NCBI GenBank assembly: GCA_050012475.1
Contig: JBEKHC010000006.1
Coordinates: forward strand, 1 to 64,000
Source of the DNA: Candidatus Velthaea sp.
GTDB taxonomy: Bacteria > Vulcanimicrobiota > Vulcanimicrobiia > Vulcanimicrobiales > Vulcanimicrobiaceae
DNA length: 64,000 nt
Reading direction: 5' to 3'
Shown here: positions 24,001 through 33,000 of the stretch, in pieces
How positions within the stretch are numbered: position 1 is the stretch's first letter
Layout of the letters: each line of letters starts with the position of its first letter
Made by a program: the position numbers

Positions 24001-27000
24001 GGCGGCATCCCGCTCAACGCGCCGCCAATCGCCGTCGCTGCCGCATAAGCGGGCTGCGCGACCGTCGAATCGGAGCCATCGATGAGCGCCTGTACTTGGG
24101 CGGGATGACGCGCGTCGAGATCCGCGGTGAAGTTGGGCGGGATGTCGAACGCGACGCGGCAGGTGCCCGAGACGATCAGTTGCTCGAGTTGCGCACGCGA
24201 CGCCGCAACGTCGCTCACGTCGAAGATCTTCGAACCCCGCAGCGCATCGATGAATGCGACCGAACGCGTTCCGCGATCTTCGTTGAAAACGGCGGTGCGG
24301 ATATGTTCGACTTTGGTATTGATGGCGTACCCGAAAATGATCAACTGCACGACGGGCAGCATGAACGAGATGATCAGCGTCAGCCGGTCGCGCATGACGT
24401 GGCGACCTTCTTTGTACAGGACGGCGCGAAAGCCGCCGGTATCGAAGGGGTTGCGCATCAGGTTTTGCGGTGCGCGCGCGTGAGCGCGACGAAGACGTCT
24501 TCGAGCGTCGGCTCGATGTCTTGCACGGATTCAACGGGGACGTGAAGATCGCCGGCCAGCCGTTCGCGCGTTGTGGTGTCGTCGACGAGCACGTGCAGCT
24601 CCTGACCGAATATCGTCGCATCGCGAACATACGCGATCTGCCGTGCTTCGCCGAGCGCCTGCACGACGTCGCGGCAATGGGCTTGATAGCGGCGCGTCGC
24701 GGCGGGCGAGACCTCGGGCCGCGCCCGCAGCTCGTCACGCGAACCGGCGGCGACGAGCTGACCGTCCAAGATATAGCCGACCCGGTTGCAGCGTTCGGCT
24801 TCATCCATGTAGTGCGTCGTGACGAACAGCGCAACCCCGCCGCGGCTGAGCGCGAAGAGCAAATCCCAGAGCTCGCGGCGCGCCACCGGATCGATCCCGG
24901 CCGTCGGCTCATCGAGAAACACCACGCGCGGTTCGTGCAGCAGGGCGCCGGCAAGCGCCAAGCGCTGCTTCCAACCCCCCGAGAGCGTGGCTGCGAGTTG
25001 GTCGCGGTACGGCTCGAGTGCCGAGAAGGCAACGAGTTCTTCGATGCGCTGCGCGCGTTTGGCCGTCGAAAGACCGTAGGCGCGGCCATAGAACTGTAAG
25101 TTCTCGAACACCGTGAGATCGCCGTAGAGCGCAAACGATTGCGACATGTAGCCGATCGAGCGGCGGACGTCGTCGCCCTGAGCTTCGATATCGAAGCCGC
25201 AGACGCTCGCCGTTCCGGATGTCGGCTGAACCAGACCGCACAGCATCTTTATCGTGGTCGACTTGCCGCTGCCGTTCGGCCCCAGAAAACCGAAGATCTC
25301 GCCTTCGCGGACGGCCAGTGAAAGCGCGTCGACCACGACCTTCGAGCCGTACTGTTTTTTGAGCGCGCGCGTTTCGATCGCGATCCGATCGATCACGGCA
25401 GCGCGACCGCCGCCGTCGTTCCGCCGTGTACGCGGCCGGCGCGGTCGTGGATGCGCACTTTCACGCCGAAGGCCAACGTAGCGCGATCTTCCGCGGTCTG
25501 CACGCTTTGCGGCGTGAACTGCGCTTGTTCGTCGATTTGCTCGATCGTGCCCGCGAGCTTCACGCCGGGTTGCGAATCGGGATAGACCGCGACGTCGGCG
25601 CCGACGTTCGCGCGCGCGAGCAGCGACTGCGGAACGAAGATGCGCACGAACGGTTCACCGTCTTCGTCGATCGTGGCGACGGCGGCACCCGGCGCGACGA
25701 GGTCGCCGACGTGCAGGTTCAGCGCGCTCACGATACCGTCGGCGGGAGCGCGAACTTCGGTGTCGTTCAAGCGCGCCCGGGCGTTTGCGACACCGCTGTT
25801 CCCCGCGGCAAGCGTCGCTGCAGCCTGGCGAATTGCGTCGGGCCGTGCGCCTGCCGCCAGCGAGCGATACGCGTTTTGCGATGCATCGAACGAGGCCTTG
25901 GCGGCCGCGGTATCGCGCGGCAGCGTCACGTTTTGGGCCTGCTCGAGTTCCCGCTCGGCGTTGCGCACGCCGGCGCGAGCGGCATCGGCCTGCGCGCTCG
26001 TGCGCACGGCCCGCGCGACCGCCGCGTCGCGTTGTTGTGCCGAAACGTCCCCGGTGACGAACAGCGCGCGCGTCCGCACGGCATCCCGGCGCGCTTGTTC
26101 GCCGTCGGCGAGCACGTCGGCGAGTTGCGCCCGCGCCTGGGCGAGGTCTCCGCGCAGAATGCTTATCTGACGGGCTTGCGAAAGGCGCGTGCGCTCGAAC
26201 GTTTCGCGGGCTTCGCGAGCTTGATCGTTGGCGCGGGCAAGATCTTCGGCGCGGGTGCCGGCGCGCAGATCCGCGAGCGCGGCTGCCGCCGCAGACGCCT
26301 GCTGCCGCGCCGCTTCGAGCGCCGCCCGCTCTTGCGCGTCATCGAATCGGACCACCAGTTGGCCGCGGCGCACCCGCCGGCCGTCCTGCACCGCTACCAA
26401 CGTGACCCGGCCGCCGATCGGGCTCCCGACGGCGGCACTTTCCGCCTGAACGGTTCCGCTGAAGAGATCGCCGTTCGCGCGCGCACAGGCGGCAAGCCCG
26501 AGCAATGCGCCCAGGCTGATACGTGCGAGGTTCGAGAGCGTTCGGGTTCGCCGCGGCTTGTACGTAAGTGGTCGTTTCCTTGCCGATGTCCTTAGCTTGG
26601 AACGCAGCGTCGACCTCGATGGCCCGCCGGCGTCAGCTCACCAGCGAATTTCAAACGTGCAGCTCGGCGCGCCGCGTGCCTCGCAGTCCACCTCGACGGC
26701 CCGGGCCCGGGCCGTCACCAGCGCGCGGAACAGCCCCTCGAACGACGCGGCGTAGTAGCTGCACGCCGGGGCCTGCGCCCGCGAGCCGCGACAAACGGGG
26801 CACCCTTCGATCGCGATCCGCGGCGGACGGCCGCCGCGGACGCGCACCGCCCCGCTGCCGGCGAACGTCCAGGTATGCTTGGTGATCGATGCAAGCAAAA
26901 TGGGCGCGACCAAACGCGGCGGCAGCAGCCGCAACAGCGTCTGGGCCGGGCGCGGGATGCGATTGGCCAGCACGTAGTCGGCAGTTTTGTAGCCCGCGAG

Positions 27001-30000: not shown

Positions 30001-33000
30001 CGGTCTGGCAGCGGATGCACGCCAGATTGCACGTCCGCGTGAGGCTCCAAACGACGACCGGTTTGCGTCCCGCAACGCCGTCGGGCGAATCGCTGCCGCT
30101 GCGGCGGCGTCCAGCGCCGGGCAGCTCAGCGCCGCACACCAGCGCGGTAACGTCGATCACGCAGTGGCGCTCTCGGGCGAACGAACGTACGCCGGGGATC
30201 GATAGACGCAGCACGGTTCGGACCCGAACGCGTCGCCGCTGAACCCATACGCACGTGCACGCGAGCCGCCGCACATCTGGCGGAAATCGCAGCCGCCGCA
30301 CTTTCCGTTCAACCGATCGGGATCGCGCAAACGACGGATGGTGGGATCGTTGCGGTAGACGTCGATGAGCTTCTCTTCGCGCACGTCGCCGACGGCGATC
30401 GGTAGAAATGCGCCGGGAAAGATGCCGCCGGTGTGCGAGACGAACACCAAGCCCTTGCCGTCGCCGATCGCCGGAAAGCGAAAATGATCGGCCTTCGACG
30501 GCCGCTCCTTGACCGGCAGCGTTGCGATCCGCTGAGAAACGAAACGCCGGAAATGCGGCGCTTCGGTCGTCGTCAGCATGAACGGCGCATCTTTCCAAAC
30601 CGCAAAAAGGTCGGCGAATGCCGCCTCGAATCCCTGCGCATCCAGACAATCCTCGATCTCGGGCGCAGTCACGGGCACGGGAAAGGATACCGCCCACAGC
30701 GACGCGTCGAGCCGCGGAATGAGATCGGCGATCGCTTTGATCTGGGACTGATTGTGGCGCGCGAGCGTGGTGTTGATCTGCAGCTCGATGCCGGCTTCGC
30801 GGGCGTGCGCGGCTGCCGTCAGCGTGCGCTCGAACGCGCCTTCGACGCCGCGAAACCCATCGTGGGTTTGGGCGTCAGCCCCGTCCAGGCTCAACGACAT
30901 CCGGCGGCAGCCGGCCGCGGCCAGCCGTTCGAGCGCAGATTTGGTCAGCCGTGCCGTTGCGCTGGGCGACAGCGCAACGCGCAACTCGCGCTGGACTGCG
31001 TACGAGACGATCTCGAAAATATCGGGCCGCACGAACGGATCGCCGCCGGCGAGGATAAAAATCGGCCGGCCGTAGGCGGCAACTTCGTCGACCAGATCGA
31101 AAGCCTCAGCGGTCGTGAGTTCCCGACCGTCACGCTTGGGAATCGACTTCGCACGGCAGTGCACGCAGGTCAAGGCGCAGGCGCGCGTCACCTCCCAAAT
31201 GACGATACGCGGACCGTCGTCGTAGATACTCACGGGCCTACCGTACTTGAGGTTCCCGAAGAACCCAGGAAGAAACATATCGGGAGTCCGTACAGTTCCT
31301 TCAACAAACGTTCACACGTTGACGACGCAACGCGTTCCGGAAATTGCCGCGCCAACTCCAGAAATGACGGGGTGAGCGGGGTCGAGAAGCACACGAAGCG
31401 CCGCACAGGCGCGGGAGTTTTCACGATGAAGCGGAGCCTTTTCCTGACCGCGGCCTTGACCGCTCTGACCGCGCCGGCGTCTGCGGCAGGCGTCACCGGC
31501 TGCACGTGCTGCGAAGGCTGGGCCGGCGCGATGAATGCGAAAGGCTACCACACCACCATTCACGAGATCGAACACGCGGCGCGCTTGGCGAAGTTTGCCA
31601 TTCCTGCCGAGTTGGCCGGCTGTCACACCGCGGTTGCCGCGGGTTACCTCATCGAAGGGCACGTGCCGGTCGAGGCCGTCGCGAAACTCCTGCGCGAACG
31701 CCCGAAGACGCGCGGCGTCGCATTGCCCGGGATGCCCAGCGGAACCCCCGGTATGCCCGGGCCGTCGAGCAAAATCGACGTCGTGTTCCTCGACGACCCG
31801 CAGCGCGTCTTCTTTACGCGCTGATCGTTGATGTGCGGGCAGGGCCGCGGCTCGTGACGCACGCCGTCGAGAATCAGCCGCCCCTGCTGTGTCCGTACAA
31901 TGTGTTCGAGGCCAGCCCGCTGCTGAGCGAAACGCTGGACACGTTCGCGGCAGCCGGCGCCCGGCGGCGATTGAACGAGCTCGGCGCGCTCGCCGGCAGC
32001 GCCAAGGCCATCGGCTGGGGATTCGACGCCAATCGCAATCCGCCGGCCCTCAAGACGTTCGACCGCTTCGGACATCGCATCGACGAAGTCGAATATCATC
32101 CGTCATACCATGCGCTGATGGAGGTCGCGGTCACGCACGGTCTGCACGCATCTTCCTGGTGCGATCCGGCTGGGGGCGCCCACGTTGCGCGCGCCATTGC
32201 GTTCTTCATCTGGAGCCAAGTCGACGCCGGACACGGATGTCCGATCTCGATGACGCATGCATCGATTTCCGCCCTGCGCGTGCAGCCCAATCTTGCCGCG
32301 CTCTGGGAACCCGGCATTCTCGCGGCTGCGTACGACCCCGTGCTGCGGCCGCCGGCCGAAAAACGAGGCCTGCTGCTGGGTATGGCGATGACCGAAAAGC
32401 AAGGCGGCTCCGACGTCCGCGCCAACACGACTCAGGCCGTCGCTACCGGGGCCGGCGGTCCGGGCCAAGAGTATGCGCTAACCGGACACAAATGGTTCTG
32501 CTCCGCTCCGATGTGCGACGCGTTTCTGGCGTTGGCGCAAGCACCGCGCGGGCTCTCGTGTTTCCTCGTGCCACGCATCCTGCCGGACGGAACGCGGAAT
32601 GTTTTCGCCTTGCAGCGGCTCAAAGACAAGCTCGGCAATCGTTCCAATGCCTCCAGCGAAGTCGAGTGGAACGGCACGCTCGCGTATTTAGTCGGCGAAG
32701 AAGGCCGGGGGATTTCGACGATCGTCGAGATGGTCAACTTTACGCGACTCGACTGCATCATCGGTTCGGCCGCCGGCATGCGGCAAGCCGTGACGCAGGC
32801 CGCGCATCATCTTGCGCACCGTTCGGCTTTCGGGAAGATGCTCATCGACCAACCGCTGGCGCAAAACGTGCTCGCTGATCTGGCGATCGAAGCCGAGGCA
32901 GCGGAGCTGACGTTTCTGCGCGCGGCACAGGCGTGCGACCAGGCCGCCCGCGATCCGGCGCAAGCCGCCTTCAAACGCATCGCTACGGCAGTGGGAAAAT

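Follow-up and report, generated by a model that had tools for sequence, protein, structure and literature searches.

HemN (CgdH), the oxygen-independent coproporphyrinogen III dehydrogenase, is a radical SAM enzyme that converts two propionates to vinyls; it forms a separate radical-SAM family, and its substrate is metal-free coproporphyrinogen. Coproheme is common to the siroheme and coproporphyrin routes, and NirJ, which serves heme d1 synthesis, also requires a siroheme decarboxylase (NirDLGH/AhbAB-type). NirJ is described as a close relative of AhbC that likewise acts on didecarboxysiroheme, and the AhbC and AhbD proteins of sulfate reducers and archaea as carrying the motif CxxxCxxC together with a C-terminal CX2CX5CX20-21C (PMC10114771). 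One report places AhbD in coproporphyrin-route bacteria without other Ahb enzymes, and proposes it there as an anaerobic stand-in for ChdC (PMC13564367). For Haloferax volcanii, ChdC is given as the enzyme of aerobic and AhbD as that of anaerobic heme synthesis, and the deletion phenotypes reported separate the two (PMC5746218).

The window analysed here is a stretch of 64,000 nucleotides at the start of contig JBEKHC010000006.1 (C6) of a Candidatus Velthaea genome (GCA_050012475.1), that of a phototroph from soil. It contains an operon of four head-to-tail genes (Table 1), whose order, g581-g580-bchE-bchJ on the minus strand, had been claimed in the survey's finding and is confirmed by the gene models. 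The reading frames of g581 and g580 overlap by 4 nt, and g580 is still translationally coupled in the operon; 28 nt separate it from bchE, and bchJ follows the bchE stop codon directly (gap 0).

Table 1. Genes of the operon and its divergent neighbour (positions in the window).
Feature	Position	Strand	Length (aa)	Basis and remarks
g581, AhbD-like radical SAM/SPASM protein	30157-31278	-	373	ORF, translation; operon gene 1
g580, AhbC/NirJ-like radical SAM/SPASM protein	28973-30160	-	395	ORF, translation; GTG start
bchE, anaerobic Mg-protoporphyrin IX monomethyl ester cyclase	27247-28944	-	565	NCBIfam, Pfam, start codon
bchJ, V4R-domain protein	26638-27246	-	202	NCBIfam, Pfam V4R
DUF411-like small secreted protein	31426-31824	+	132	similarity to G059 protein

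Both g581 and g580 encode Radical_SAM and SPASM domains (Pfam), and the pair shares the two cysteine motifs of AhbC and AhbD, which in the translation of g581 appear as CxxxCxxC (C34, C38, C41) and the C-terminal Cys motif. While AhbC and AhbD of the siroheme pathway are best or near-best NCBIfam matches for the pair, its scores lie far below the equivalog cut-offs: the best models for g580 are NirJ1 (387 bits, cut-off 650), AhbC (363, cut-off 650), and NirJ (343, below its cut-off of 515), and those for g581 are TIGR04053 (394.2 bits, cut-off 395) and AhbD (307, cut-off 500). HemN models are absent from the 25 best NCBIfam hits listed for g580 and g581. The downstream genes score well above threshold, bchE with TIGR02026 (822 bits, cut-off 481; Pfam B12-binding and Radical_SAM) and bchJ with TIGR02019 (187 bits, cut-off 74), and bchE is 89.6% identical to the copy of a genus mate.

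The pair was placed in the context of 347 further genomes of the same family, which probably belongs to the Eremiobacterota (348 with this one), and of a smaller sample of 60 relatives (61 genomes), where absence calls depend on the sensitivity of the search's first look. The AhbC-like gene occurs in 12 of 43 good-quality genomes and in 13 of 61 in all, which reproduces the earlier count of 11 of 41. All 12 pair-bearing relatives of the smaller sample have the siroheme-decarboxylase domain PF17805, a co-occurrence shared with the AhbC/AhbD pathway, and family-wide a fused AhbAB accompanies the AhbC-like gene in 39 of 41 relatives, the two exceptions being 61% and 80% complete. Of 12 family relatives, 10 have a g581 orthologue (at least 50% identity) adjoining the AhbC-like gene. 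The pair is orthologous to AhbD and AhbC of the siroheme-dependent heme route. Differences from the described systems lie in the decarboxylase of the relatives, a single fused protein whose best models are AhbB and AhbA (below cut-off), and in the joining of the pair to bchE/bchJ.

This joining follows the presence of BchE, which is encoded in 10 of the 348 genomes, including this one. Eight of the ten carry the pair, and in all eight bchE and/or bchJ adjoins it, in the order AhbD-AhbC-bchE-bchJ (window, G303, G014, G059), AhbD-AhbC-bchJ (G004, G081), or bchE<>AhbD-AhbC-bchJ (G030, G085); bchJ comes after the Ahb genes or bchE in all nine relatives whose loci were read. The pair was found in none of the seven AcsF-only phototrophs of the 60-relative sample, and BchE and AcsF are both absent from 8 of the 12 genomes in it that carry the pair. 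In ten family phototrophs HemE, HemF, and HemH were not found, nor was HemN in the four of these in which it was searched. That the pair was invented by phototrophs is not supported, given its orthology to the AhbD/AhbC genes of relatives, the company of AhbAB, and the pair-bearing genomes without either cyclase.

In this genome, neither a PF17805 match nor a tblastn match to the AhbAB proteins of four relatives was found. In G303, G014, G059, and G030, AhbAB stands in a row of RND adaptor, TolC-like, AhbAB, SBP, and SBP genes; here, the genes that flank AhbAB in those relatives lie on contig C27, 25 nt apart. These flanking genes are 72-80% identical to those of the genus mate and in the same order, and contig C27 is therefore native. 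Since AhbAB is missing from a conserved row on a native contig, it has been cleanly deleted, and an assembly gap is not the cause. The absence of AhbAB claimed by the survey thus holds, and its caveat that the gene might lie in the missing 6% of the genome gives way to a deletion. While the family resembles H. volcanii in having mostly AhbAB and ChdC (PitA), with AhbD added in a minority, the haloarchaeal system is without a chlorophyll-gene link, and this genome has lost AhbAB and apparently ChdC.

The remaining tetrapyrrole genes of the genome (5.36 Mb, 204 contigs, 93.8% complete, 5.3% contamination) largely bear out the survey's inventory: hemE, hemF, hemH, and pgoX all lie on contig C14, AcsF is on C52, and bchE is present in two copies (C6 and C60). 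The one match to the HemN family is below cut-off and is missing the N-terminal 50 positions, and so is HemW-like, in agreement with the claimed lack of a true HemN, which was also not found in four BchE-bearing relatives. ChdC was not found in this genome. A HemJ-type oxygen-independent protoporphyrinogen oxidase was likewise not found, in a search that covered HemJ and not HemG; replacing HemN would therefore not be enough to make protoporphyrin without oxygen. HemF and PF17805 never occur together (HemF in 0 of 43 PF17805 genomes, PF17805 in 0 of 7 HemF genomes).

A second AhbD-like gene (AhbD2) lies on C14, outside the window, divergent from the hem cluster (hemE-hemF-hemH-pgoX<>AhbD2), and of 10 metagenome contigs that could be assessed, 7 have this row. 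AhbD2 and g581 are paralogues that are only 37% identical. An AhbD-type gene is next to hemE in G080, and metagenome contig L128 has an AhbD-type gene without AhbC directly before bchE-bchJ and beside hemE-hemF-hemH-pgoX. All three BchE genomes that have HemE and HemF but not AhbAB keep an AhbD-type gene (this genome with two copies, G080, and G201). Judged by this gene context, AhbD2 is a better candidate than the pair for an oxygen-independent decarboxylase. The resemblance to coproporphyrin-route AhbD bacteria consists in an AhbD-like gene without AhbAB, beside or in a genome with hemE and hemH; unlike in those bacteria, hemF is present, ChdC was not found, coproheme is not an evident intermediate, and there are two AhbD paralogues, one of them still accompanied by an AhbC-like gene. 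AhbD2, the absence of ChdC, and the presence of AhbAB in every pair-bearing relative of the sample had been missed by the survey.

With the enzyme that feeds the pair deleted, g580 evolves very fast while g581 stays conserved. In the six BchE genomes analysed, the g580 copies group together as a clade (SH-aLRT 91), and the window copy is nested in the G303/G014/G059 group (SH-aLRT 99), with a terminal branch of 0.68 in the orthologue tree against a median of 0.14 (∼5-fold). It has 34 private changes at sites invariant among 23 other orthologues, a further departure from described AhbC proteins; along its lineage, 36 of 142 invariant sites have changed, compared to 1/107 and 1/106 in two relatives. 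Invariant sites have changed 2.4-fold less often (0.25) than the most variable ones (0.59), whereas in relatives the difference is ∼30-fold. The branch omega is ∼0.47 vs. 0.12, a rough NG86 three-taxon estimate, as are those for g581, with dS of 0.5-1.1 near saturation. The GGE motif and the cysteines of the radical-SAM and C-terminal clusters are retained, and the polar or aromatic invariants replaced include H50R, Y52Q, D141A, R151C, K173C, C204T, H254D, and W282C; for R151C, the ancestral residue still segregates in the population. Since AhbAB is deleted, g580 has lost its ancestral substrate, didecarboxysiroheme, and these changes show that much of the ancestral constraint has gone as well. 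A plainly dead gene would not be expected to look like this one, with an open frame, an omega below 1, and synonymous changes making up 4 of 6 population variants. Insertions and deletions were absent from DNA contigs of two other studies, and in a substitution-only drift simulation (1000 runs) the frame stayed stop-free in 1.5-6.5% of runs. The altered state was seen in no other of the 348 family genomes.

For g581, the corresponding omega is ∼0.22 vs. 0.16 in the genus mate orthologue, and 10 of 112 invariant sites have changed; these private changes, against 0-7 in other orthologues, suggest that its function may also have shifted. The frame is intact, without insertions or deletions, in contigs of other studies. 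Contigs from RNA libraries match g581 at 30713-31084 and 30748-31006, to which DNA carry-over may have contributed. In G201, which has HemE and HemF and is without AhbAB, the AhbC-like gene is gone and a g581-type AhbD is kept before bchE-bchJ, with 2 of 112 invariant sites changed and 110 kept.

We favor, with a little better than even confidence, the reading that an inherited siroheme-route pair has outlived its route here, with g580 relaxed and g581 probably still a decarboxylase. On this reading, most of the family uses the siroheme-dependent heme route, with g581 and g580 as its AhbD and AhbC orthologues, and BchE-bearing lineages would have inherited the pair within a single operon for oxygen-independent tetrapyrrole synthesis, AhbD-AhbC-(bchE)-bchJ. 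This genome would later have dismantled the route, through deletion of the fused AhbAB and apparent loss of ChdC, and would now obtain protoporphyrin and heme from the hemE-hemF-hemH-pgoX cluster with its own AhbD2. The role of g580 would be changed or only residual, its frame still being kept open, although "residual role" is vague. The product of g581, still under purifying selection, is a putative oxygen-independent decarboxylase of two propionates, most likely on coproheme and less likely on coproporphyrin(ogen), redundant with AhbD2 and presumably co-expressed with BchE at low oxygen. A counterpoint is that, with hemF present and ChdC not found, there is no obvious place for coproheme as an intermediate, and the case for g581 or AhbD2 as coproheme decarboxylases is the weaker for it.

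The survey had proposed that the pair takes the place of HemN when bacteriochlorophyll and heme are made at low oxygen, which we regard as unlikely. In its favor, AhbD turns two propionates into vinyls, as HemN does (PMC10114771); true HemN is missing from this genome and from four BchE-bearing relatives, AhbAB is truly lost yet both frames are maintained, and an AhbD-type gene persists in 3/3 BchE genomes with HemE and HemF but no AhbAB. It stands without AhbC directly before bchE-bchJ in G201 and L128, in the latter also beside the hem cluster. This proposal, however, leaves no role for the AhbC-like gene, the one losing constraint, and the G201 AhbD, which keeps 110 of the 112 sites invariant in siroheme-route genomes, suggests that the substrate is still coproheme. 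The next step would be blocked without oxygen (HemJ, though not HemG, was searched for and not found, and pgoX requires oxygen); it is AhbD2, not g581, that is linked to hemE and hemF, and co-regulation by oxygen would account for the operon equally well. What stands of the survey's proposal is that the pair cannot act in the siroheme route here, AhbAB being lost, that no true HemN was found, and that both frames are kept. A HemN-like job is conceivable, if unlikely, for the AhbD-type genes; for the AhbC-like gene, a part in coproporphyrinogen decarboxylation is unsupported.

That g580 gained a different radical-SAM reaction after losing its old substrate, one connected with BchE/BchJ or with another tetrapyrrole, through adaptive remodelling of its substrate pocket seems quite unlikely. 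Its frame is open despite the long branch and a quarter (25%) of invariant sites changed, an outcome that drift rarely leaves; cluster cysteines and GGE persist where polar and aromatic invariants have given way, and coupling and mostly synonymous variants point the same way. Against this, the only 2.4-fold rarity of invariant-site changes looks like general relaxation, R151C is still polymorphic, G201 simply lost the gene, and with this state confined to one genome, nothing points to a new family being maintained. We give little credence to both genes being functionless leftovers, neither broken nor deleted so far. Their partner AhbAB is gone, the genome has the whole classical route together with a separate AhbD-like gene, and both have more private invariant-site changes than most orthologues, but the omega of g581 is near that of its orthologue, frames are intact in other studies' contigs, the drift simulation speaks against it for g580, and the RNA-library matches add a weak objection. 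Hardly credible is a mixed bin in which the siroheme route and the pair belong to one organism and hemE-hemF to a related one, with AhbAB in an unassembled part. The bin has 5.36 Mb (relatives 1.4-5.8 Mb) in 204 contigs, with the contamination given above, and a one-organism origin rests on composition for C6, C14, and C27, with genus-level identity added for C6 and C27 only. The deletion, however, lies on C27 among genes in the order of the genus mate, a second copy of the C27 row, AhbAB, and ChdC were not found anywhere in the bin, and C6, C14, and C27 fall within ∼1 sd of one another on the first three tetranucleotide axes.

Upstream of the operon, the divergent DUF411-like gene starts 147 nt from g581, and its product is 60% identical to a protein of G059 that Pfam assigns to DUF411 and that adjoins the same cluster there.

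On contig C6, the minus strand carries four consecutive genes in head-to-tail arrangement, which encode two radical-SAM proteins (AhbD-like g581 and AhbC-like g580), BchE and BchJ. The latter two are clear family members (BchE, 822 bits against a cut-off of 481, NCBIfam TIGR02026; BchJ, 187 bits against 74, NCBIfam TIGR02019). The operon lies outside any photosynthesis gene cluster, with a divergent DUF411-like gene and an acyl-CoA dehydrogenase gene upstream, and genes for an HlyD-type adaptor and an ABC transporter downstream. A promoter and terminator scan found no promoter-like site in 26300-31900, and the five terminator-like sites observed there are uninformative, as 5.8 are expected by chance. 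RNA-library contigs (two runs, one study) match g581, the g581/g580 junction, and pieces of bchE and bchJ, and give only a hint of operon transcription; they span 9 of the 30 bins of the stretch in each run, so the uncovered bulk of g580 is uninformative. A bacteriophytochrome fused to GGDEF-EAL is also encoded in the window, 7.4 kb from the operon.

Features of the operon, its surroundings and related loci (positions without a prefix are in the window; C14 and C39 are contigs of the same genome, G000; L numbers are fetched loci; other G numbers are family relatives)
Feature	Position	Strand	Remarks
g581 (AhbD-like)	30157-31278	minus	373 aa
g580 (AhbC-like)	28973-30160	minus	395 aa; GTG start; 4-nt overlap with the end of g581
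bchE	27247-28944	minus	565 aa; 28-nt gap after g580
bchJ	26638-27246	minus	202 aa; 0-nt gap after bchE
DUF411-like secreted protein	31426-31824	plus	adjoins the operon; 60% identical homologue beside the same operon in G059
Bacteriophytochrome-GGDEF-EAL	16321-19194	minus	
AhbD2 (second AhbD-like gene)	L119:12086-13204 (C14)	plus	372 aa; TIGR04053 408.1 bits, cut-off of 395 passed
Bacteriophytochrome histidine kinase	L119:15493-17892 (C14)	plus	
Three tandem MtaA/CmuA-type corrinoid methyltransferase genes	L138:589-5475 (C39)		
g581 orthologue of G059	L099:8670-9735		in two frames, break near 9305
Second bchE of G014	C13:122151-123510		BchE model matched in two pieces, 247 and 461 bits
Pfam-less protein beside the pair	L102:10782-12038		~415 aa
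Pfam-less protein beside the pair	L104:6736-7989		~415 aa
Pfam-less protein beside the pair	L105:1605-2945		~415 aa

Both proteins of the pair contain the Pfam Radical_SAM domain (g580, E = 3e-22; g581, E = 3e-24), while SPASM (cut-off 21.5 bits) is matched by g580 at 24.5 bits and weakly by g581 at 17.5. The radical SAM motif CxxxCxxC (C44, C48, C51) and the SAM-binding GGE motif (G88-G89-E90) of g580 are invariant in an alignment of 14 orthologues, and g580 keeps the C-terminal cluster cysteines C348, C351, C357, and C379, in the auxiliary-cluster arrangement CX2CX5CX20-21C given in a passage of PMC10114771. The translation of g581 contains the corresponding C34-x3-C38-x2-C41 and a C-terminal cysteine motif. 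Among NCBIfam models, g580 scores under every equivalog cut-off (NirJ1, 387.4 bits of 650; AhbC, 12,18-didecarboxysiroheme deacetylase, TIGR04546, 363 of 650; NirJ, 342.9 of 515), and g581 reaches 394.2 of 395 bits for TIGR04053, on which a full-text literature search found no paper, and 307 of 500 for AhbD (heme b synthase, TIGR04545), the enzyme that converts the propionates of coproheme to vinyls by decarboxylation. HemN models are absent among the best 25 NCBIfam matches listed for each protein, which places neither in the HemN family. A sequence search of solved structures returned no AhbC, AhbD or NirJ, only the distant SPASM enzymes PqqE, SkfB, and BlsE. For both proteins, the closest named homologues are encoded in Eremiobacterota metagenome-assembled genomes (53-63% identity), followed by verrucomicrobial and clostridial AhbC-type proteins (42-51%). 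The family probably belongs to the Eremiobacterota.

The normal context of this pair is the siroheme route, as is seen from its distribution in the family. An orthologue of g580 occurs in 12 of 60 sampled relatives, and in 10 of these 12 it is adjoined by a g581 orthologue (at least 50% identity). A fused protein of ~376 aa with two PF17805 domains (siroheme decarboxylase, AhbAB), the halves of which have AhbA and AhbB as their best-matching models, with scores under cut-off, is encoded in 43 of the 60, including all 12 with the pair. In the full set of 348 family genomes, the g580 orthologue is found in 41 relatives and PF17805 in 270 of 347 (E <= 1e-6); the two occur together in 39 of the 41, and the remaining two are genomes of 61% and 80% completeness. 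By their heme genes, 42 of the 61 genomes (the sample and G000) are of a siroheme type (PF17805, no HemE, no ferrochelatase), nine of a coproporphyrin type (hemE adjoining hemH; one also with PF17805), and seven, G000 included, of a protoporphyrin type (hemE-hemF-hemH), so that one bacterial family holds siroheme-, coproporphyrin-, and protoporphyrin-dependent routes; the remaining three (G029, G046, G058) have neither PF17805 nor HemE and were given no type. HemF and PF17805 never occur in the same genome of the sample, and ChdC is present in 53 of the 60 relatives. The PF17805 tallies (sample and whole family) and the ChdC tally take in unpublished genomes, none of which is named here.

A Pfam scan of 124 neighboring ORFs in the 12 relatives found no heme or AhbAB gene adjoining the pair, and gene context in the non-phototrophs therefore gives no functional hint beyond a recurrent Pfam-less ORF. 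This protein of ~415 aa adjoins the pair in three non-phototrophs (47-49% identical mutually) and has a homologue on contig C118 of G000. Cupredoxin/COX2-like genes lie near it in two of these loci (L102 and L104), and such genes are also present in L108.

Among the pair carriers, G000 is an exception, having genuinely lost AhbAB. No PF17805 domain was found in this bin (5.36 Mb, 204 contigs, 93.8% complete, 5.3% contamination), nor did tblastn with the AhbAB proteins of four relatives find the gene anywhere in it. PF17805 is present and HemE absent in each of its three genus mates, of which G303 shares the four-gene operon. In G303 and three further relatives (G014, G059, G030), AhbAB is flanked by a TolC-like gene on one side and two substrate-binding-protein genes on the other; contig C27 of G000 has the same neighbors in the same order, 72-80% identical to those of G303, with 25 nt in the place of AhbAB. 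Two features looked for in an AhbC, a siroheme decarboxylase in the same genome and conservation of the residues invariant among orthologues, are both lacking for g580, the first being present in 39 of the 41 orthologue-bearing relatives. The survey's finding had listed a single HemN-family match of HemW type, no siroheme decarboxylase, hemE, hemF, hemH, and pgoX on C14, AcsF, and two bchE copies, and this inventory was borne out: the sole match to the HemN model TIGR00538 is of HemW type, on C125 (131.6 bits, cut-off 325, profile positions 51-438). HemJ and ChdC were not found in G000. Weaker URO-D matches occur in some family genomes and were considered as a divergent HemE; those of G000, on C39, are methyltransferases of the MtaA/CmuA type. 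Three such genes in tandem lie beside one for an AcsV/RamA-like corrinoid activation protein, a combination not expected in a phototroph of this group.

Contig C14 has the row pgoX-hemH-hemF-hemE and, divergent from it, AhbD2, which is only 37% identical to g581. The row together with AhbD2 recurs in seven of ten assessable metagenome contigs, and in one contig (L128) bchE and bchJ come directly after AhbD2, and AhbC is absent. Three family genomes (G080, G086, and G255) encode an AhbD2 orthologue of at least 75% identity. This classical gene cluster with its AhbD2 either arrived in G000 or was retained there. Two other BchE genomes are likewise without PF17805. In G080, which has no AhbC-like gene, hemE adjoins AhbD2 and hemF is in pieces. 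G201 has hemE and hemF, along with an operon of AhbD (g581-type), bchE, and bchJ from which the AhbC-like gene is gone. The patterns in these three genomes indicate that where AhbAB is lost, AhbC is lost or decays, and an AhbD-type gene stays, which suggests that an AhbD-type enzyme is a portable decarboxylase, independent of oxygen and able to persist once the siroheme route is gone, and that AhbC is not. A bacteriophytochrome histidine kinase is encoded 2.3 kb from AhbD2 on C14, and one is also found near AhbD2 in metagenome contig L124.

The two genes of the pair have diverged in their fates. To the orthologues of five BchE relatives, which are 74-88% identical mutually, g580 is 56-63% identical; for g581 the value is 61-71% (66-77% among the relatives). 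At otherwise invariant sites, g580 has 34 private changes (0-5 in each of 23 other orthologues) and g581 has 10 (0-7 in the others), and of the invariant sites, 36 of 142 have changed on the g580 lineage (1 of 107 and 1 of 106 in relatives), against 10 of 116 for g581 (0 of 106). A rough three-taxon NG86 estimate of branch omega gives 0.47 for g580 (0.12 on the G303 branch) and 0.22 for g581 (0.16). By contrast, bchE is 89.6% identical to the G303 copy, with an omega of 0.11 versus 0.09. The terminal branch of g580 is 0.68, versus a median of 0.14. Of its private changes, H50R and Y52Q are situated next to the cluster motif; C204T, D141A, R151C, K173C, and H254D are further examples. Nonetheless, g580 is not a long-dead gene. 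When drift by substitution only was simulated from the G303 g580, a stop-free frame was left in 6.5% of 1000 runs taken to 80% identity, and in 1.5% of runs taken to 73%. The stretch is also covered by DNA contigs of two further studies, for which no indels are reported. Four of the six g580 variants listed are synonymous, and one nonsynonymous variant restores the ancestral Arg151: R151C (window 29710, codon 151) is polymorphic, and contigs of two DNA runs (two studies) read the Arg codon. Constraint on g580 has been strongly relaxed or altered, and constraint on g581 continues. No evidence of convergent adaptation was seen in g581: of its 10 private changes, A45S alone is shared with AhbD2, and none is shared with G201.

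Within the family, BchE is present in 10 of 348 genomes, eight of which carry a g580 orthologue. The gene order is AhbD-AhbC-bchE-bchJ in G000, G303, G014, and G059; AhbD-AhbC-bchJ in G004 and G081; and AhbD-AhbC-bchJ with a divergent bchE before it in G030 and G085. In the sample, the pair is found in none of the seven phototrophs with AcsF and without BchE, and of the 12 relatives with the pair, eight lack both BchE and AcsF. Hence, among phototrophs the pair accompanies BchE, but it is not specific to them. Pair and BchE are probably an oxygen-independent radical-SAM set that is kept and regulated together, for which there is a precedent in Haloferax volcanii, where heme synthesis depends on ChdC under aerobic and on AhbD under anaerobic conditions (PMC5746218). 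A literature search found no paper on the AhbD-AhbC-bchE-bchJ operon. Two copies of these genes match in two pieces: the g581 orthologue of G059, a single-contig genome, owing to a frameshift or sequencing error, and the second bchE of G014, which is possibly broken.

The pair is orthologous to the AhbD and AhbC genes of the relatives, and we infer that g581 still acts as an oxygen-independent propionate decarboxylase, and that g580 has lost its job on didecarboxysiroheme, so that its present role is residual or changed. Coproheme is an intermediate common to the siroheme and coproporphyrin routes, and in the AhbD of G201, 110 of the 112 sites invariant among siroheme-route genomes are unchanged, which suggests that its substrate was the same before and after the swap of routes. 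Reviews have already put AhbD forward as the enzyme that stands in for ChdC without oxygen where a bacterium has no other Ahb enzymes (passages of PMC13564367 and PMC10114771). The survey had proposed instead that g581 and g580 together replace HemN. From genome context, it is possible that putative AhbD-type enzymes act on coproporphyrinogen III in this way, as all three BchE genomes without AhbAB keep such a gene, and g581, AhbD2, and the AhbD of G201 are concrete candidates for a stand-in. However, the sequence of the G201 enzyme is essentially unchanged, no HemJ-type oxygen-independent protoporphyrinogen oxidase was found in G000, and the copy linked to hemE and hemF is AhbD2 rather than g581. 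For a HemN-like role, AhbD2 is the better candidate in this genome. The locus offers a natural experiment in pathway replacement, with G000 caught after swapping heme routes and the orphaned genes in view, one drifting and the other still held in place.

A further puzzle concerns the relatives that retain AhbAB. In the sample, ten genomes with AcsF belong to the siroheme type and encode the fused AhbAB (G004, G014, G030, G059, G022, G024, G037, G038, G043, and G056), several of them single contigs, and HemE, HemF, and ferrochelatase (HemH) were not found in any of the ten. HemN, searched for in G000 and in the four of these that have BchE (G004, G014, G030, and G059), was not found in those four. 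If real, these absences leave no known route to protoporphyrin IX in these genomes. In addition, ~230 family genomes have AhbAB and no AhbC-like gene, which leaves the step from didecarboxysiroheme to coproheme unaccounted for; both puzzles depend on the sensitivity of the genome searches. Literature searches found no discussion of the origin of protoporphyrin in these phototrophs, and nothing relevant on the heme routes or siroheme of Eremiobacterota or on the siroheme-dependent route in connection with phototrophs. The passages of two papers on Eremiobacterota phototrophy (PMC6664022 and PMC9758169) mention only AcsF and BchE and do not treat heme routes, and none of six heme terms occurs in the supplements of the paper on the cultured phototroph Vulcanimicrobium. 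One explanation, which we consider improbable, is that siroheme-route phototrophs make the protoporphyrin IX for bacteriochlorophyll from the siroheme branch and not from coproporphyrinogen III, with AhbD-AhbC at bchE/bchJ as the oxygen-independent arm and G000 as the aftermath. The substrate of the two enzymes would then be coproheme, with the iron removed afterwards, or else metal-free or Mg analogues, and the G000 lineage would have acquired the classical hemE-hemF route and now be discarding the old one. If this were true, the second job for Ahb enzymes envisaged by the survey would be right in the relatives, and not in G000.
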